Part shown: piece by piece, positions 113-61,990 of the stretch
Layout: each line of letters opens with the position of its first letter
How positions within the stretch are numbered: the first letter of the stretch is position 1
Assembly: GCA_000182565.2 (NCBI GenBank)
Contig: KQ257457.1
Length of the DNA stretch: 64,000 nt
Strand: one strand, 5' to 3'
From: Spizellomyces punctatus DAOM BR117
Lineage: Eukaryota
Translations under genes and position numbers: made by a program
The notes under the pieces: generated by a model
Databases searched by the model: none
Told to the model about the DNA's origin: nothing
Seen by the model: only the letters and a program-made list of their open reading frames with translations

Positions 113-1771
113 ATGATCGAAGCCCAGGATTCGCAGAAAAGATATTACGATTTATCGCGACGACATTTGGAGTTCCGGAGAGGAGATAAGGTGCTTCTGA
201 GCACGAAAAACCTAGCAGGGTATGAGTCCAAGATCGCTCCGAAATGGCTGGGACCAGTCACGGTGACCGACTGTAACCCTCTCCGCGACAACTACGAGTT
301 AAAACTGCCAGACAAGATGAGACGACTTCATCCATGGTTTCACATATCGAAATTACGTCCGTACCAGAAGCCTGTCGACGCCGAAACTGAGGAAAAGGTC
401 GCGGAAGCACAAGCGGAGGATTCCGACGCTTCAGATGGCGAGTTTGAAGTGGAAGCGATAGTAGACCATCGAACCAGGCGCGGAAAACGTCAATTTCGAA
501 TACGTTGGTCCGGATACCCACCCCATGAGGATACCTGGGAACCAGAGGAAGCCCTAACAGAGGCTTCCGAAGCCTTAGAAGAGTACTGGAGATCCAGAGC
601 TCCCACTAGCGCGCTAGTAGAGGACTCTTTGGTAGTCAGCCTTGCAGGCGACGCCCCGGAAGATACGGCTTATGCTTCCGACCACCAATGCTTCGCGGTT
701 TATCCGGACGATAGCTCACGTGATAATCACGCCCTCTCACCAGAAAGAAAACCAGTTTCGCGTGGCTTACCTCACCAGTCGAGAACGCCACACCAAGCCT
801 CCCGATCACGCTTACGCGCGTCCGAGCTGTCAAAATCAGCCGGCGACGACCTTAAAAGGACGCCCCTGCACGCTCCCCCTCTTTTTTCTTCTTCAACCGC
901 CCACGACCTACTTCCCTTACACACTCACTCTGCTTCGCAAACCCCTTCTATCGACACCGAAACTAAAACTTCCATTTCTAACACAATGAACACCGATCTC
1001 AGAGGACAAGCAGGAGTGAGCGTACCCTCCACGTACATGTCCGGCTACCCTTGGGAGGAAGACTCGGGCGACTTCGAGGCCGAGGGCGTGCTGGATCGCC
1101 TTGGGGTTGCGATCGCTACCTGGGTTCACTCCTGGGTTCATCAGCTTCGGACCAACCCCAACGCGCCGCTGCAGACTCCAGGGCATGAGTTTTGGCTGGG
1201 AGTCGACGCTCCGAAACCTTACGCGGTGGGCCAGCCCCTCACAAACCACATCGCGGACCCCTACAGCAAGGCCACCGATGGTGGTGAAGCAGCGGTCGGA
1301 ATAGTTGCTGACGCGAAAAAACCCGGAAAAAGAGGGCGCCCAGCTCCGTGCGCCGCTTGGCTCGACCGCGGGGTTCCCCAACACGAGGCGGGAAGCCGAA
1401 AAACGGCTCCGTTCACCGATTGGCCGAACGACGACGCCCACGAGTTTGCGTCCGCCGTCATTGAAGCAGCTAGGACGGTGCTCCTAAGGACGGCGAACGC
1501 AGCGGAAGCCTCTGCAAGGCTCACCAGACCCCGACATCACGAGCACGCGGAGTACCATTTCCGCGCGACAAACCTGAAAAGGGCCGCGGAGACCTTTACG
1601 GCCCTCTACGTAACCAGAACTGGCCCCGACGTGACCCCGGGTACCATCGTTCGTACCGCAACAGATCAAATCTGGTTTTGTTGCAACGTCAGTGGCCGTG
1701 CCAGTATCATCTGGGTCGTGAACCAAGATGCAGATGAAGCGGACCCCACAGATCCGGTACCGACCTGGTAA
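113..1771 (+). CDS. Retrotransposon Pol C-terminus (integrase SH3-like tail + chromodomain) with a ~390 aa in-frame extension; the reading frame begins upstream of the window
   Basis: 552 aa open frame; chromodomain at about 437-595; unrecognised sequence after it; stop about 50 nt before the PPT. Confidence 0.85.
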   Translation: MIEAQDSQKRYYDLSRRHLEFRRGDKVLLSTKNLAGYESKIAPKWLGPVTVTDCNPLRDNYELKLPDKMRRLHPWFHISKLRPYQKPVDAETEEKVAEAQAEDSDASDGEFEVEAIVDHRTRRGKRQFRIRWSGYPPHEDTWEPEEALTEASEALEEYWRSRAPTSALVEDSLVVSLAGDAPEDTAYASDHQCFAVYPDDSSRDNHALSPERKPVSRGLPHQSRTPHQASRSRLRASELSKSAGDDLKRTPLHAPPLFSSSTAHDLLPLHTHSASQTPSIDTETKTSISNTMNTDLRGQAGVSVPSTYMSGYPWEEDSGDFEAEGVLDRLGVAIATWVHSWVHQLRTNPNAPLQTPGHEFWLGVDAPKPYAVGQPLTNHIADPYSKATDGGEAAVGIVADAKKPGKRGRPAPCAAWLDRGVPQHEAGSRKTAPFTDWPNDDAHEFASAVIEAARTVLLRTANAAEASARLTRPRHHEHAEYHFRATNLKRAAETFTALYVTRTGPDVTPGTIVRTATDQIWFCCNVSGRASIIWVVNQDADEADPTDPVPTW

Positions 1772-14305: not shown

Positions 14306-15702
14306 TCTGGAATACACTTTGGAGAAAATCTCCACTGAAACTGTAGTGGATAAAGAAACAATGGACTTGAATACGGACTTTGTACTCTTATCATAGTTAC
14401 TATGATTAAATACAACTGCTGCCAGATAGATATTTTGGATTCTACCTGAAGATTGCTTTGGGCTTTTTGTTTGATTTGCATTTATGCTTACTTAAGCAGA
14501 CTTGTCTTGACTCCGCTCATATCTTTTAGTTAAACATGATCTTGACAGTTTACCAACCGGATCGTAAGCCTTAACTTTTGAGGGTACACTTGGACAACTG
14601 TCCTCATGCGTGTTAGACCTTCGCGCCATTTGAATCGAACCCTCAGAAAATGGAATTATTCCATACGCGATCTCTATATCTTTAATAAATTGCGGAAATC
14701 TCAAGAAAAACAATAACGCTTTGACCAGATCTAGTACATCCCAGAACGTTCATTGGTCGATATCCACATACCACGCACGATAGGAAGCTTTCCATTCATA
14801 CCCACCTGCCATTGTCCTTGTATACATGTTTGCATTTGCTTCCGCGATTTGCGATTTGCCAAGAGTAGGCCCAGCCGGCAGGCAGTATAGTGCTCTGGTG
14901 TGCCGAGAATCGAATCGATAAACCCATTCTTTACCGGAGGTTGAGTGTGTCTTGCTTTTTGTTTTTTCACGCGCTCGCCCGCTCGGGCCGCTGTGATCAT
15001 CGCATCAATTACATCATCGGTGCCCTGGGTGAAGGATATAGGACGATGAGCCCTTTCCAATGTCGCAGTCTGCATTTTGCATTTTTTTTCTGCATATGGA
15101 GATGGTATTTGAAAATGTGTCTCTAGTATCCATTCAAGCATATAAGCGGTAGCTCATTAGTTTGGATACGCGGAACCTTGCAGATTGAACTTTAATGGAC
15201 ATTGGCCAACAACATCCATGAACTGCCTGCATTTCCGATGAGAGGCAGTCGCGAGTCCAAGTTGGCCCGGATGGAAGACATTTTGTCACCCTCCATGGAA
15301 CAAAAACAAATGAAAGACCTGCATAAAGGATGAGGGAACGTGTAAGAATGATGCGATGTCTTAACTGATAATCCCTTCTTTCCATGGATTACTGCCTTGT
15401 TTGCGATCTGTAACTACATCAGTTTTGCCAACGTGCGACTACAAGCCGTCCTAGCCCGTCTGGAACAATATCGATATGAGTTAGCCCAGATCGTGCCGGT
15501 AAATCCAATGTTTGCTGGCCAAGACTGGCCAAGACTGGGCGCCCAGCATAAAAAGACATGGGCTCGGACGGCTCCCTCCTTCCACCTCACTCCCCAACCT
15601 CATATTTTCACTCTCTCTGTACATTAATCTATCCCGCGTAGTCTGTACAATTTAGTAGTATCATATTCCATCGTTTTCAATTTGCTGCTTACCGAACGGA
15701 AA

Positions 15703-16730
15703 ATGAAGGCTCAACTTCTCGCACTGGCGATGGCCGGATCGGCCCTTGCAATTCCTCAAGGCGCGATACCAGCAGTTCTCGACACGATCCTGTCTGAACT
15801 TGAAACAACCACAACAACAGGCACTACGGCCACGGCGACTGCGACTGCCACCAGCGCTATCGGCGATGTTTTGCCTCTTGCACGACACCGCCTGAGAAAC
15901 AGACACTTTGGTCCCTGGGCATCTGTTAACGCGAGTAAAACAGCTCCCGCGTGGGGAGATTGGGTTGCAACAACCGCAGCAACAGCTACAGCCACTGCCA
16001 CGATCGAGGCAACCACAACCGGAACCGCGACTGCCATCGCCCCTGTTGCTCCTATCCCAGTCGTCCGTCGCAACTGGAAGTTCCATCGCGCCCCTTTGAA
16101 GCAAGCTGTTGCTTTTAAGCGCACCGACGACGGTGATGATGACAAAGATTGGGAGGACGATAAGAAGGACCGTCCTCATCATCGTCACCACAGGAGGACA
16201 ACCACGGAAACTGCTACGGAGACTGCCACGGAAACAGCTACCGAGACTGCAACTACCGAGACTGCCACAGAAACAGCTACTGAGACTGCAACTACCGAGA
16301 CTGCAACCACCGCAACGGCCACTCTGTTTGATGCCACTGAGACCGGAATAGAAGTCATTCCAGTCAAACGTTTCCGTCGTCACAACACTCCCCAACAAGA
16401 CAGGGACCATGACCATGGCTTTGAAGTAACGACAACGACCACGGAGACCGCAACCGCTACTGAAACCGCGACTGAAACCGCGACTGCAACCACCACGACA
16501 ACTGCCCTATTTGATGTCCTAGCTACCGAAGTCCCCTTTGTTCCAATCAAGGCTCGTCATTTCGATGACGAAGACGATGACCACGATGATGATTGTGAAG
16601 ACGGTGAAGAAACGACTACGGACACGGCCATAGTCACAGCCACGACGGAAACTGTTACGGTAACGGAAACGGTCGCAGCAAGCACAACTACCATTGACTG
16701 GTTGGAGATCTTGAAGACCGAGCTCCCCAA
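15703..16730 (+). CDS. Secreted Thr-rich repeat (mucin-like) protein; 3' end lost in the gap
   Basis: Signal peptide MKAQLLALAMAGSALA; (TETA)n tracts alternating with basic and His/Asp-rich segments. Confidence 0.8.
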
Positions 16731-17688
16731 NNNNNNNNNNNNNNNNNNNNNNNNNNNNNNNNNNNNNNNNNNNNNNNNNNNNNNNNNNNNNNNNNNNNNN
16801 NNNNNNNNNNNNNNNNNNNNNNNNNNNNNNNNNNNNNNNNNNNNNNNNNNNNNNNNNNNNNNNNNNNNNNNNNNNNNNNNNNNNNNNNNNNNNNNNNNNN
16901 NNNNNNNNNNNNNNNNNNNNNNNNNNNNNNNNNNNNNNNNNNNNNNNNNNNNNNNNNNNNNNNNNNNNNNNNNNNNNNNNNNNNNNNNNNNNNNNNNNNN
17001 NNNNNNNNNNNNNNNNNNNNNNNNNNNNNNNNNNNNNNNNNNNNNNNNNNNNNNNNNNNNNNNNNNNNNNNNNNNNNNNNNNNNNNNNNNNNNNNNNNNN
17101 NNNNNNNNNNNNNNNNNNNNNNNNNNNNNNNNNNNNNNNNNNNNNNNNNNNNNNNNNNNNNNNNNNNNNNNNNNNNNNNNNNNNNNNNNNNNNNNNNNNN
17201 NNNNNNNNNNNNNNNNNNNNNNNNNNNNNNNNNNNNNNNNNNNNNNNNNNNNNNNNNNNNNNNNNNNNNNNNNNNNNNNNNNNNNNNNNNNNNNNNNNNN
17301 NNNNNNNNNNNNNNNNNNNNNNNNNNNNNNNNNNNNNNNNNNNNNNNNNNNNNNNNNNNNNNNNNNNNNNNNNNNNNNNNNNNNNNNNNNNNNNNNNNNN
17401 NNNNNNNNNNNNNNNNNNNNNNNNNNNNNNNNNNNNNNNNNNNNNNNNNNNNNNNNNNNNNNNNNNNNNNNNNNNNNNNNNNNNNNNNNNNNNNNNNNNN
17501 NNNNNNNNNNNNNNNNNNNNNNNNNNNNNNNNNNNNNNNNNNNNNNNNNNNNNNNNNNNNNNNNNNNNNNNNNNNNNNNNNNNNNNNNNNNNNNNNNNNN
17601 NNNNNNNNNNNNNNNNNNNNNNNNNNNNNNNNNNNNNNNNNNNNNNNNNNNNNNNNNNNNNNNNNNNNNNNNNNNNNNNNNNNNNNNN
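16731..17688. other. Assembly gap (958 N)
   Basis: Run of N. Confidence 1.
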
Positions 17689-17749
17689 TTCTATTTAATG
17701 CCGTCCCCTTGATCCTCACCCGCCTGTGAGTTGATTCCTGCCAACGGCT

Positions 17750-39677: not shown

Positions 39678-43533
<3,856 letters not shown>

Positions 43534-44001
43534 GCTGTGGATGTGAGTTTCAAGGTGCAAAGGAGGGCGAGAATAGGACGAGGTGTCGTTGCTCGCAGTT
43601 TGTAAACCCCGCTGATCGTTGATACAGTGACGTTGAGAGCTCACTGACGAGCAATGGCAACGCGCGCAAAAGAAAGCTCGGTAGCCCCTATTGATGCTTA
43701 CGCTTGTGCCCTCTAACGTATCCCATCGCCCGTCAGAAGGGAGGAAATCCGGTGGTTGAACACAGCGTTGGGTAACTTGCGAAGCGGTCCACATCTTGCC
43801 TTGTGCACGTGATAATGTGGCATTGTTCACATAGGCCTCCCTACCTGGACTTTCGGCAGAAGGTATTGTGTAAATAATACTGCAGTGATGACAACAACAG
43901 CGCTGTTAATAGGGGTAGCTCTACATTGACGGATAGGAGAAAGCTCTGCACCGTGGTGGGTAGCCTCTAGTTGAGCTCACAATGGGGTTGAATATATCTT
44001 A

Positions 44002-44074
44002 TAGTGTAGAGGTGACAGAAACTGGCACTAGCTACTACACCAGGGAATAAACCGGCGACAACCGGTTCGGAAAA
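44002..44074 (-). ncRNA. Fanzor omegaRNA-like scaffold (stand-alone, ghost-type locus); predicted guide continues into about 43987-44001
   Basis: Minus strand reads TTTTCCGAACCGGTTGTCGCCGGTTTATTCCCTGGTGTAGTAGCTAGTGCCAGTTTCTGTCACCTCTACACTA. It closely parallels the SpuFz1 omegaRNA as recalled (TTTTCCG..CCGGTTGTCG..CGGTT..TCCCTGGTG...GCTAGTGCCA...CACTA). Stems AACCGG/CCGGTT and TGGTGTAG/CTACACTA are directly visible. Confidence 0.75.
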
Positions 44075-44083
44075 GCTAACTAA

Positions 44084-44590
44084 CTAAGCTACTACTAGGC
44101 AATTATACACGCAATACGTAACGGTTGGTTTTAACCGGATAACTGCCCACCACCACACGCGGTCGCCTTGATCCAGAACTCTTGATGGCATTGAAGCCAG
44201 ACTCTTGCATCCAGGAGCGAATCGACTGGGCAGCGTCACAAGCTGGAGGATTTTCAGTGACAAGGCTTGGAGACTAAAACTGCATGTCAGAAGATGACCT
44301 GATGACAAGAAATGCAAGAAATGCCATCGATACATACCAACCAAGCTCAACTAATGTGGCAGCATAATAGTAGGTTTTGTTATCGGATCCGATTGGTTGC
44401 CACTGGTTCTGATCACGGTTGCTGTCGGGCGGTCGAGGTCTTCGGCACCACCACATCTGCATGCTCATGGGTGACCGAGTTGCAATGAGGTTGCAATGTG
44501 GGTCGCAATGAGCATTTGTGCAGATGGAGAGTCAAGGATGGGTAAAGAGGAAAGAGGGAAGAGGCAGCAAAAGGCCCCCTTTTATAGACC
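44084..44590 (-). other. Putative short spliced Pol II transcription unit directly upstream of the omegaRNA-like scaffold
   Basis: TATAAAA at about 44580-44586, a pyrimidine-rich leader, and a GTATGT...CTGAC...TAG intron (44337-44274). Splicing joins two short ORFs into one of about 106 aa that ends 10 nt before the scaffold. Confidence 0.45.
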
Positions 44591-45224
44591 TTCGGCATGC
44601 GCCTCACCGCAGTTTAAAAAAAAAACATTACATGCATGCCACACTGCAGTTTGGAGAACATTAGCATGCATCCTTACCGCTTTGAGCGATAGATGGGGGT
44701 GCTGATTATGCGATATGATTAACCAGATTATCCGGATAATAATGGGTCTTAGTGCCATTTTCACCCGCGCAAAAGGCCATATTTACATGAAAAAGGTTTG
44801 TGTGAATACACAATGAATTGTGGTGTGCTACGATTGTGAGAGCCTGAACAAAGAACTGGAGCAGTGTATTCTCTTGTCATCAGATTTAGACATAGGCCAA
44901 CTGTCCAATTTCGCCTCGGGTATCAACAAGTTTATATTCCGTTGCAGATCCACTTCTATTTACACCTTTTACAAGGAAGGCACGGAACAAAACGTATACA
45001 GGTGAATGAATATGATGTGTAAGACTTTAACGCTCGCAAACCCCATGGTCTTGTCCAGACAACTGCGGGCGCACTGCTGGAGATTAATCAAGGAACAACC
45101 GTGCTCGTCGCACGGAAATTCTCCACAGGTGTAGTGCCACCAATGGTATTACCATCGCTCATAAGAGCGAGTCCTATCCGGAAAGCAGGCAAACTTGGTC
45201 CATATATACGCCGGCACACAACAC

Positions 45225-48200
45225 TCAGTCCAACTTGTTTACGTGTATTCCTCCCCGTGTATAGGGATGGTCCAACGACCAAATATTGCACCGCGAGATA
45301 CTGACCAGACGATGCGTCGAGTTATTGAACGGAACGGGTTGATCTCCTCCTTCCATACCTGCGCAATCCACACCATCTGCTGGTAAAGGGATAGAAATTG
45401 GGGTAGTTGTCAATGTCCTCAAGGTCTCAAAAAACTGCGCGGCGTCATCGGCAAATCTCGAACAATAGACGTGGTCCAGCCGACGAAACCGTTCACTCAC
45501 GGACCACGTCTCTACTGGAAAATCCGGTAATAAGCTTTTCAAAACATCTGGGCTCTTGGTCTCGCCGTTGGAAATCTCCTCTCCAGGTATAGGAATCATC
45601 GTAATTTGCTGACCACGGACGGGTATTTTGCCTCCGGCAGATGGAGACTCTACAATGGGGAGTACGGCGGTCTGCCTTGTAGTAGAGGCATCCTTTATAG
45701 CTGCAGCTGCGATTAGAACCTCGCAAGTACTGCCGCGGACTACCTCACCGCCCCCCACCCCTTCCCCCTGTTGATTACAGGGAAAAGACATGTTTTGTTC
45801 GACCAGTTGCCCAGCGTCATCCTTAACATTGGTAGACTGGTGAGATCTTGGCACTAATTTGGTCATCGCCAGTCCATCGCTTACATCGAGGGAGCCGTCC
45901 ACCTTTTCCACCGGTATCTTCACACTAGCATTTGAGCATCTCCGTTTGCTGCTTCGCTCCTCTCCGGGCTGTTCACTTGAATCCCGCTGCCGTTTATATG
46001 AACTGCTGGTCATTTCATTTACATTAGGTTCCATAGCCAATTCGGCCGTCAACGACAGTTTCGACTCTTTCTCAAAAGTAGAGTAGCTTGCAGCACTTGA
46101 AAATGAATCTCTGCGACTGTCCCCGCGACTTTGACTGCCGACTCCGGGTGACCGGCTCCGGCTCCGACGTGCTGCGTGCTGATAGCGGCGGTCGTGTGAA
46201 CGGTCACGAGAACCACTACGGCTGCGAGAACCTTCCCGAGACCTCGCGCGTCTGGCCCGGTCTCTATATGTATAGGAATTGCGCTCCCTGGATCGACTGT
46301 GCTCATAGCTATGGCGACGCCGAGTTCTGCTCCAACTTCTGTCTCTACTATGGTCGCGCCTATCACCCCGTCTCCGGTCCCGATCGCGCCCGCGGTCTCT
46401 TTCCCAGTCTTTCCTACGGTCGTGGACCTTCCCTTGTCCCTTGTCGGCGTCGTAATGAGTGTCACCGTCCGCGCTGTGCCGCTCGGCGTCGGCAATGCCA
46501 ATCAACTCACGGGAAGGTTCCATTTTTCTCACTGTTTCACCAACGGCATCGGACGAACGCCTCACGCGGCTCCTATCCCCGTACCCGTACATATCGTTGG
46601 ATTGTGCGGCATTTTCAGTTGCTAGTACCTCACGAATACTGTAAGGCTCCTTGAAAACAGCTTGTATCAGGACGTCATGGGAGCGGACATCTCGATCGCT
46701 CACTGATGATATATCAGAATAATGCGACCGCTTCATCGACAAGCCACTAAGGCCCACCGTGTGCGCTACATCGGATCCAATCTCAGAGTGCGTCTGGGTA
46801 TCATCTGTGTGGCTGCGATTCGCTGTTGAGTCGACGGGCCCGGGTATAGGACGTCTGTCCCCCTTAAAGGTTTCCTGGGATTTGCGCAAAAATCTGCCCG
46901 ATGAGACAATGCTGCTTTCAGTACTACCGATGTCATTCTCATCTCTACGCCTCAATCGATCGGAGCCGGGTGCTTCTGGATCGGGAGGTTGAGATGCATC
47001 ATGGCGGCTTGAAACATCGCTCCAAGCTGGAACAGAGGTCGACTGTCCTGGGTGCCGGGCGTCCCCATTGACTCCTCTAGAAGAACGCGCATATAGCGGT
47101 GACTCTCGCGGAGGGGCCCAGTAGGTTCGTTGGCGGTCTCCGTGAGCTCCATATGGGTGGTACTTCTCAAAATTGTCATATGCCCGACGTGGTGTGTTGT
47201 ACCGGACGTCATGTCCGGGATGAGCCCGCCCGTCGCCAAAGTGTGGTGCAGTCCACGAATGATTCGAATAGTGTCGTCGGTCAAACTCATGGAGGGGTAC
47301 CCACCTGTCTTGGTCCCAAAGACTATCAGATATAGGGTCCCACCAAGTTTGACGTGGTTCATCCCAGACACTCCGGTCGTCTGCAGCTCCTACGTCGGCG
47401 GAGGAAGGGTCACGTCCTGTCACAGCCGCTGAGGACTGGGAATCTTGTGTAGAGTCCATTCCGGATTTTGAAGCGGTTGGTGCCGACTTTGCACCGGTCA
47501 CAAGAAAATTGGTCTCCGACTTTCTACCTCCTTTTTGCTGCTTTATTCTCTCCTTGCATTCATATTCATGCCATGATCCTTCTACGACTGGTAAACTATA
47601 GAGAATACTCAGCATACCCGATAGAACATAAAATACCAAGATAACTCACTCCTTTGGAAGGCATGGGGTCGGTGTCTCTGTTTTGAAGAATGGATGATCC
47701 AACGCCTCCTTCGCGCTCGGTCTCTGCGATGGATCATAGGAGAGAAGGCGGGAGATGAGATCCACAGCCATTGGTGTAACCGGAGTGACGGCTCTAACAG
47801 ACATTATGAACTGTTAGCGACCAGTAACATCGCTGACAATGTGTTCAGCCTACTTTTCATTCAGATAGGTTTCCAGCCGCCTTGGATACTTTTGCTTTGG
47901 TTTCAACCACATCTTGGACCAACTGTGGTCCATTTTGCGATAAAGCTGCCAGTTCTCGTCCGTAGGATGACCACAAATGCTGAAGATGCGTTTCACTTGT
48001 TCGGTGTCCCGGCCCCGAGAGGTGTGGAAGATGGGATACTTTATAAACATCTCTGCAAGAATGCACCTATCGAGTGAAGAATAACTTGGTAATTAGTGCA
48101 CGCCCAAGATCTTTCAGAAAGAATCATACATACCCCGCACCCCACATATCAATTTCATATCCATAGTGCAACTGGCCGAGTAGCACCTCAAGAGGTCGAT

Positions 48201-60724: not shown

Positions 60725-61370
60725 ATGCCGCCAAAGAAAAAGCAAAAGCTTGAAAAACTTGACAAACCCACCTTACATACCTGCAACAAAACTTCCTTTG
60801 CAAAAGCTTTCCTGCCTAATGAGACCTACCACCAATGGCTTCTAGATTACATCGCCATCATCCATCAACTTGCCGACCATGCTTCCCACGCGCTGAAATT
60901 CTATCTCCTTTCATCAGCGCCAGTTTTTCCCACAGTAAATCAAGAGAGGATTGAAGCCATCCTCTATCTTCTCAACAAAGGTGAATCATGGCAACCAAAA
61001 ACCGGTGCAAAGAAGGCATTATGTGAATCCTTGTTGCCATACATTTGTCAGTACTGCCACATCATCAGCTTTGTTCATCCAAATCTACAAAAAGAGCAGC
61101 AATCAGTCAATTACCTGACAGTGAGTATGATGGCGAATCTGAAGGTCAACATCCAGGAACACTTCATGACGATGCTGCTCCGGTACATTAATCTGCAGCT
61201 TGACGTGAAGGGACAGAAGCAGTGACTGCCACTGAAAAGCGATGCGCGGAAAGCTTTCTTTGCTCGTCTTCACTACTTGAAGTCGGTTTTCCTTTTCGAA
61301 ACCATGCCAGAATCACTGGATGACTTGACTGCTGAAGAGAGTGAACTTCTAGAAGAGATTTGGTCCCTTA
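60725..61370 (+). pseudogene. Fz1: Fanzor1 (eukaryotic TnpB-like RNA-guided nuclease, SpuFz1-like), N-terminal third; premature stop and Gypsy insertion
   Basis: MPPKKKQKLEKLDKPTLHTCNKTSFAKAFLPNETY..LLDYIAIIHQLADHASHALKFY...EQQSVNYLTVSMMANLKVNIQEHF..MLLRYINL..DVKGQKQ*LPLKSDARKAFF...EEIWSL parallels the SpuFz1 N-terminus as recalled. TATATAAA at 60662; in-frame TGA at 61223-61225. Confidence 0.88.
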
Positions 61371-61976
61371 TGTAACGATGAGGACATCTTTGAGAGATCG
61401 CGAGTAAGCCCAAATCGGATGCGGGAAGCATGAATCACATGACCAACTCCACCGATTAGGTTACCGTGACCGAAAAAACCGGTTTGGAGAATGGCAATCA
61501 GCGCATTAGATTTCAGCGTGCCTCGTACAACCTGTGGAGGCCCGAGCCAGTGCGAAAAAGGAAGAAATTGGTACCGCCACCAATAAATCAGTTGCGGTGC
61601 AGTGGCACCCATTAGTTTAGTTTAGTTTAACAGTTTATCCAAGAATCTTGTATAAAAAGGATGTATTCAATAGAAAAAACAGGCGGGGGGGCAGAAGCCG
61701 TAGCGACACTAAAATCCCCACAACTAGCTTCTCAACTCCAATCTTAGGTTAACAGGAACCCAACAGAGCGCTTCAACGGCCTGATCACCCACACTGAAGC
61801 CTCTAAATCCTGCTCAGTTCACAACTAACCGATTCTCCTTGCCTCTTGCCCCCAATTCACTACCGACGCCCAAAGAAAGGATTTGGAGACTACGATTCCT
61901 AGTACAGACATCCATCTAACCTGCTAGGAGACCCAAGTTGTCTTTACCATAGTTAACCAACAAAAAATCCATTACA
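61371..61976 (+). repeat. 5' LTR (about 606 bp)
   Basis: TGTAACG...CATTACA, colinear with 1829-2428. Confidence 0.95.
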
Positions 61977-61990
61977 TGGTGGAGAAGCAC
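61977..61990 (+). promoter_or_regulatory. Primer binding site, complementary to a tRNA 3' end (tRNA-Ala-like, ...CUCCACCA)
   Basis: TGGTGGAGAAGCAC directly after the LTR terminal CA. Confidence 0.75.

Follow-up and report, generated by a model that had tools for sequence, protein, structure and literature searches.

A probable ghost Spu-1 copy upstream of PIK1 in Spizellomyces punctatus and the apparent spliced carrier of its family's guide RNA

The locus and its features

The window examined in this study is a single stretch of 64 kb of Spizellomyces punctatus DNA, and the segment of interest occupies 762 nt of its minus strand (44763..44002). It lies between the stop of an 806-aa ORF (45225), the RNA contig of this upstream gene extending to 44950, and a gene identified as PIK1 by the Pfam domains PF21245, PF11522 and PF00454. 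PIK1 is in the same orientation, with its ATG at 43533, and its RNA contig in a public sequencing run (X2) extends to 43769, so that 233 nt separate the right end of the segment from the apparent start of the PIK1 mRNA, which lies downstream. The PIK1 frame is open for ~100 codons upstream of the likely start ATG (43534-43830, minus strand) and contains an in-frame ATG at 43830, which is probably not part of the PIK1 mRNA because the X2 RNA contig begins at 43769.

Two further regions of the window were noted in passing. Direct copies of ~600 nt at 1828-2434 and 61370-61982 are separated by 59.5 kb and share 88-94 % identity; they probably represent LTRs, or solo LTRs, from a single retrotransposon family. 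A long ORF at 15628-17712 contains periodic repeats of 12, 15 and 39 nt; several of its frames, on both strands, are open, and it is the gene of a low-complexity repeat protein.

A preliminary description of the segment had drawn attention to a TATAAAA motif, a CT-rich leader, a 64-nt intron with the signals GTATGT, CTGAC and TAG, a frame of 106 aa and an omegaRNA-like scaffold behind its stop. All of these were confirmed by script and by reading, and they are listed with the other features of the segment in Table 1. The CTGAC motif is at intron position 47 (about 44290), and the stop codon is followed by TTAGTTAG and then by the scaffold, from 44075 on the minus strand. The longest frames in the segment are of 64 and 88 aa (106 aa when spliced), and no Fanzor ORF lies between its repeats.

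Table 1. Features of the segment 44763..44002 and its right flank, from left end to right end
Feature	Position in window	Strand	Basis
Left inverted repeat, inner half, TGAAAATGGCACTAA	44749..44763	-	Repeat pair 44018-44030 vs 44750-44762; script
Extra 33-50-nt segment, duplicated 'GCATGC..TAATGTT..AAACTGC' block	44643..44694	-	Absent from some copies (contig joints, by eye)
TATA box TATAAAA, context GGTCTATAAAAGG	44580..44586	-	Script and reading
Pyrimidine-rich leader	44469..44579	-	Script and reading
Exon 1, 131 nt, with ATG (44468) and 43 2/3 codons	44338..44468	-	Script
Spliceosomal intron, 64 nt, GTATGT...CTGAC...TAG	44274..44337	-	Script; contig joint 44273->44338
Exon 2 to scaffold, remaining frame, stop TAG 44086..44084	44076..44273	-	Script
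Ghost-type omegaRNA scaffold, 74 nt, two hairpins	44002..44075	-	Sequence identity; fold
Right inverted repeat, 30 nt, CTAGTGCCAGTTTCTGTCACCTCTACACTA, within scaffold	44002..44031	-	Script; published copies
Predicted guide TAAGATATATTCAA, first 14 nt of unique flank past right end	43988..44001	-	Analogy with Saito et al.

Relationship to the ghost Spu-1 family

Here and below, PMC10432273 and PMC13434818 are cited for the accessible portions of their text and supplementary files. Saito et al. (2023, Nature, PMC10432273) reported 134 ghost Spu-1 loci in S. punctatus, each with ~550 nt of conserved interior flanked by 30-nt inverted repeats, with CA preceding the left repeat and without a Fanzor ORF. 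The repeats of ghost and canonical Spu-1 differ at 7 positions (PMC10432273). In the SpuFz1 system described there, the guide RNA consists of a 75-nt scaffold and a 14-15-nt guide, and the main text gives a length of 88-90 nt for the native omegaRNA, for Fanzor loci only. Ghost scaffolds are active with SpuFz1 in human cells (PMC10432273, PMC13434818).

In the ghost-scaffold catalogue of PMC13434818 (2026; Supplementary Data 1), row 7 matches the scaffold of the window copy in all 74 of its 74 nt, and at least 19 entries of the accessible portion have the same first 40 nt. The window scaffold is also identical at 71 of 74 positions to the 75-nt scaffolds of the 'SpuFz1 Ghost1' and 'Ghost2' omegaRNAs (PMC10432273), and two of the three differences form both sides of a single stem 1 pair (CCGG/CCGG here, CCAG/CTGG there). 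The predicted fold has an energy of -24.1 kcal/mol and a z-score of -3.39, with 1 of 200 shuffles equally good, and both hairpins hold when the fold is predicted in a context of 286 nt. Stem 2 is predicted to carry a 3-nt bulge, as in the ghost scaffolds, and not the canonical 8-nt hairpin loop. The right inverted repeat matches the annotated 'end' of the published copies R3/R4 at 30 of 30 positions and that of copy R2 at 29 of 30.

These published copies come from Supplementary Data 2 of PMC10432273, in which R1, R2 and R3/R4 could be used complete and four further copies in part. A by-eye comparison with six distinct copies (6 of the 134 loci) found the segment to be colinear with them from end to end, in the order of the inner half of the left repeat, GGTCTATAAAAGG, the CT-rich leader, ATGAG..ATGTGGTGGTG, the GTATGT intron, exon 2, the scaffold and the right repeat. 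The intron is 59, 60, 63, 69 or 70 nt long in other copies, and its signals are preserved. Differences in length were also seen outside the intron. The extra block of 33-50 nt is present in R3/R4 but not in R1 or R2 (by eye), and contigs of two of the four public runs described below step over it, with a joint 44642->44676 that skips 33 nt (X1 and X3) and a joint 44644->44695 that skips 50 nt (X3). The window copy has a private deletion of 8 nt between 44165 and 44164, at which contigs of all four runs have loose ends; other copies have the 8 additional letters CTAGTAGG (minus strand) at this point, R2, R3, R7 and R8 among them.

The flanks vary among the published ghost copies, and four different guides occur among those compared. 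R3 and R4 lie ~37 kb apart on one supercontig and have in common the element, the guide and flanking paralogous CDSs for an 'uncharacterized protein'; this copy was multiplied through segmental duplication, not transposition.

The left end is where the window copy departs from the family. The preliminary description had found no convincing left-end inverted repeat, and this held for the outer 15 nt only: no match to the canonical outer half (TAGTGTGGAGGTGAT, with CA before it) was found near 44763, and the sequence upstream of 44763 is unrelated to the element. The inner 15 nt are present, with 14 of 15 positions identical to R2 and 15 of 15 to partly available published copies (by eye). In contigs from other copies, 44763 is followed by ATCACCTCCACACTATG, which is the canonical outer half with its CA in reverse complement. 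The complete 30-nt left repeat preceded by CA that characterizes ghost Spu-1 is thus lacking at 44763, and every other family feature tested is present. We read the incomplete repeat, as seen in the assembly, as a truncation of a family member and not as a sign of non-membership. No contig of the four runs (X1, X2, X3 and X14) spans the left junction 44763/44764. With the outer 15 nt of the left repeat lost, the copy is probably no longer mobile.

The public runs were available as contigs only, and their contig depths cannot rank the parts of a gene. X1 and X3 behave as low-cover DNA, as cover is equal upstream of the TATA box, the intron is crossed unspliced and no intron joints occur. In these two runs, summed contig depth is 24-607 over the element compared to 2-4.6 on its flanks, and four contigs carry on beyond 44763, first through the canonical outer half of the left repeat with its CA and then through dissimilar sequence. 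At the right end, one contig of X1 (43453-44029) and one of X3 (43300-44029) read across into the flank with no mismatch. The depth excess, the other flanks and another guide in the contigs of the public runs reveal an element that is multi-copy with variable flanks.

Searches directed at other families and at further copies were negative within their scope. Neither frame piece of the element matched a Pfam family, and in Rfam (E up to 1) the region 42500-46000 had no match beyond one to SNORD95, which at 19.7 bits is below the gathering score of 55 and is put down to chance. A second copy in the 64-kb window was not found by repeat search or by blastn, in which no match of the element elsewhere in the window exceeded 23 nt. 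A metagenome scan with a 23-nt stretch of the scaffold returned 0 loci. The terms 'phosphatidylinositol', '4-kinase' and 'PIK1' are absent from the accessible portion of the ghost-locus file of PMC10432273, in which matches to 'kinase' and 'CMGC' belong to other loci.

Taken together, this evidence identifies 44763..44002, with high confidence and inclusive of the mechanism proposed below, as a copy of ghost Spu-1, a nuclease-less, non-autonomous relative of the Fanzor1 (SpuFz1) transposon. It shares with the described family (PMC10432273, PMC13434818) a catalogued scaffold, the 30-nt right repeat, the interior, the lack of a Fanzor ORF, a guide derived from the flank, multiple copies and variable flanks; it differs in lacking the outer 15 nt of the left repeat, and hence the CA/TAM context, and in its private 8-nt deletion. 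The locus is of a known kind, and its scaffold sequence itself is already catalogued.

Promoter, intron and RNA evidence

The TATA context, the ATG and the splice signals are common to all six published copies compared, as is the homologous ATGAG..ATGTGGTGGTG of exon 1. Because they are common to copies at other sites, the promoter, intron and frame of 44763..44002 are sequence of the element and not of the host. The 10-mer GGTCTATAAA from the TATA context and the 10-mer GGTTGGTATG from the donor site each have 17 matches in the accessible portion of the ghost-locus file and 0 in that of the Fanzor-locus file (PMC10432273); ~13 matches would be expected if all 134 loci carried a given 10-mer, as the files are set in ten-letter blocks and only 1 register in 10 can be matched. 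The promoter and intron anatomy is therefore a property of the whole ghost family, a valid observation that has apparently gone unremarked. An internal TATA box, an intron and a small frame are not mentioned in the accessible main texts of PMC10432273 and PMC13434818, and no paper on the interior of ghost elements was among the literature matches listed.

Splicing was seen in run X2, where the stretch missing from three contigs (depth 204) is precisely 44274-44337, bounded by GT..AG (CT..AC on the plus strand); no contig of X1 or X3 shows it. This exact joint, together with the conservation among the published copies, sets the signals apart from a chance occurrence. One X2 contig uses an alternative donor 4 nt upstream and skips 68 nt; this joint also occurs in X14 and is again absent from X1 and X3. 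X14, labelled 'RNA?', covers 44002-44507 only, with 14 loose letters at 44507. X2 is labelled 'DNA?', and we considered whether it might be DNA that includes an intron-less copy of the element. This was rejected, as its 3549-nt PIK1 contig ceases to match at 43337, right before a GT and so exactly at an exon boundary, and as the unique intergenic flanks, covered in X1 and X3, are missing from X2.

Summed contig depth in X2 is 2,000-139,000 over the body of the element and 2155 in the bin 44507-44577; upstream of the TATA box it is 296 in the next bin and then 41-134, and no such fall is seen in X1 or X3. This may hint at a transcription start within ~44577-44510, contig depth being flat along each contig. 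For the ghost element in general, that its promoter is active, that it depends on Pol II and where transcription starts are inferred from the sequence and from these flat contig depths.

The RefSeq model XM_016755973.1, which lies in the published copy R1, is an independent line of evidence for splicing in the ghost family beside the RNA contigs. Its first position is the ghost ATG; the homologous intron (953..1012) is spliced out, and the model extends beyond the right end of R1 (1157) into exportin CRM1. In R1, a ghost element is annotated as the promoter and 5' exon of a host gene. At the window locus, no RNA contig links the element to PIK1, and X2 has no cover from the right end of the element to 43769.

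The contigs of the element do not appear to derive from the window copy. The window has T at 44441, whereas every contig that covers this position in all four runs reads C, and the RNA matched to the element therefore comes from sister copies. The splice junction 44337-44274 of the preliminary description is accordingly present to the nucleotide in X2 RNA contigs, but as a junction of those sister copies. No RNA contig in X2 or X14 contains the guide of the window copy (44001-43988). In X14, an 88-nt contig consists of the scaffold found in the window and 13 nt of the R3/R4 guide. Its length agrees with the 88-90 nt given for native omegaRNAs, and it fits a mature ghost omegaRNA that is expressed natively, bearing in mind that contigs may merge copies.

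These observations raise the question of whether the window copy is an inert relic, with inherited parts that are neither transcribed nor used, and amounts only to a 762-nt insertion upstream of PIK1. We regard this as a serious possibility, albeit a tentative one. Half of its left repeat is gone, its private T is in no contig of the four runs, and X2 has zero depth at 43797-43938 and 44791-44932. However, contigs lose rare variants, and a hole in coverage proves no absence; X1 and X3 also have no cover over 44791-45074. Furthermore, the copy retains, in intact and family-like form, its TATA context, ATG, donor and acceptor sites, branch site and scaffold, and the observed/expected CpG ratio of 0.72 in the element argues against heavy CpG decay.

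Coding capacity and proposed working of the element

The spliced frame encodes 106 aa (MSMQMWW...LVVA*), against 64 aa without splicing. The spliced mRNA might be translated into a genuine small protein of ~93 aa (106 aa in the window copy) and hold the omegaRNA in its 3' UTR, as is the case behind a Fanzor ORF. The ATG and the open frame across the splice junction are indeed kept in all seven copies compared (the window copy and six published ones), and the 2-nt and 4-nt indels in exon 1 of R1 restore the frame (by eye). However, nearly all substitutions are replacements. Over 80 codons, the window copy differs from R2 by 11 replacement codons to 1 silent codon, and from R3 by 5 to 0 (both by eye). 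Indels also change what is read: the 8-nt deletion gives the window copy a different C-terminal third of the frame, R2, R3, R7 and R8 stop earlier at GGT-TAA/TAG after ~93 aa, R1 reads 21 homologous nt in another frame, and a deletion makes the R1 frame continue into scaffold sequence. Use of the alternative donor, observed in X2 and X14, truncates the frame to 48 aa. No proteins of 34-109 aa that share words with the exon peptides were found among 5.8 billion clusters, and PDB yielded nothing for the exon peptides up to E 10. Only four matches (E 6e-7 to 6e-4) were obtained from 1.84 billion representatives, and the two inspected were repeat proteins that matched in a short motif. The replacement excess, the frame-changing indels and the want of a credible homologue leave neither purifying selection nor homology to indicate a protein, and we consider one unlikely; the frame is most likely an untranslated by-product of a carrier RNA.

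The preliminary description had offered two readings of the locus. It proposed either that a non-Fanzor carrier expresses the guide from an immobilized, host-controlled locus, or that the segment is a heavily eroded Fanzor element. The carrier itself stands: a non-Fanzor transcript unit, spliced and apparently non-coding, lies upstream of the scaffold on the same strand. The copy may also well be immobile, as half of its left repeat is missing. Host control does not follow, as the interior is element sequence, and what had been called a host-type transcript is the conserved promoter, leader, intron and frame of the ghost Spu-1 interior.

The second reading, in which a full-length Fanzor (Spu-1) has decayed until only small frames are left, is very improbable. 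The right end and scaffold do resemble those of Fanzor loci (PMC10432273), but the length and content of the element fit the ghost family instead, the 10-mer of its TATA context was matched only in the ghost-locus file, and neither the blastn search of the window nor the PDB search of the exon peptides gave any trace of a nuclease gene.

A single-copy, immobilized guide-RNA gene, domesticated by the host under a host-type promoter, is hardly credible, for all that the left repeat is incomplete and the element sits between two conserved host genes with no second copy in the window, since the same promoter, intron and frame occur in many copies at other sites with other flanks, the scaffold is a listed ghost scaffold, and the contigs of the four runs show no sign of conservation or expression specific to this locus. 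The preliminary description had listed, among the outcomes that would refute domestication, a non-autonomous element present in many copies, with ordinary inverted repeats and flanks that vary, and such an element is what was found. The segment is an ordinary further copy of a catalogued family and cannot serve as a case of an OMEGA guide gene domesticated by its host.

The ghost family instead appears to carry its own spliced Pol II transcript as the carrier of its guide RNA. In the working that we propose, transcription would begin from the element's own TATA-box Pol II promoter, the sequence of which is conserved. An RNA of ~0.5 kb would be made and lose its short spliceosomal intron, as the RNA contigs of the family and the RefSeq model show, and the transcript would pass the right inverted repeat into the flanking DNA, as is annotated in one other copy (R1). 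The last 74 nt and ~14 nt of the flank would then be released as the omegaRNA, a processing step with which the 88-nt RNA contig is compatible, and SpuFz1 supplied by full-length copies elsewhere would use this omegaRNA in trans.

On balance, we lean towards the broader view that ghost Spu-1 elements are self-contained mobile Pol II genes for guide RNA, composed of a conserved TATA box, a conserved intron and a non-coding carrier whose 3' end runs on into the flank and becomes the omegaRNA, and that through this read-through they also act as portable promoters and 5' exons for genes downstream, as annotated for CRM1 and possible for PIK1. Such an anatomy would explain how loci without a nuclease can express guide RNAs unaided, and it bears on the upkeep and regulation of the pool of >100 guides available to SpuFz1. 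A ghost element would be a testable native omegaRNA expression cassette in a eukaryote, and ghost elements would be able to donate promoters and 5' exons to adjacent host genes.

This arrangement can be compared with three known systems. As in canonical Spu-1 (SpuFz1), the transcription unit ends in the guide RNA, which overlaps with the right inverted repeat and combines a 75-nt scaffold with a 14-15-nt guide derived from the flank (PMC10432273). The upstream unit there is the gene of a 638-aa nuclease, whereas in the ghost element it is a short, spliced and apparently non-coding RNA, and stem 2 of the ghost scaffold differs in its 3-nt bulge, which is predicted for the window copy too.

Bacterial IS200/IS605 elements have non-autonomous derivatives that keep the ends and the guide-RNA region and lack tnpB. 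These are likewise short elements with ends and a guide-RNA template that depend on proteins supplied in trans, but the ghost element is eukaryotic and has its own Pol II-type promoter and a spliceosomal intron. snoRNA host genes are similar in that a spliced, TATA-driven and apparently non-coding Pol II transcript delivers a small structured RNA. In such host genes, which are single-copy, the small RNA is intronic, whereas in the ghost element, which is mobile, it forms the 3' end of the last exon.

One further structure was observed just upstream of the scaffold. At 44098-44146 (minus strand), a branched hairpin (GGCAGUUAUCCGG...AUAAUUGCC) is predicted and retained in the centroid structure, and it could form a 5' extension of the omegaRNA structure.
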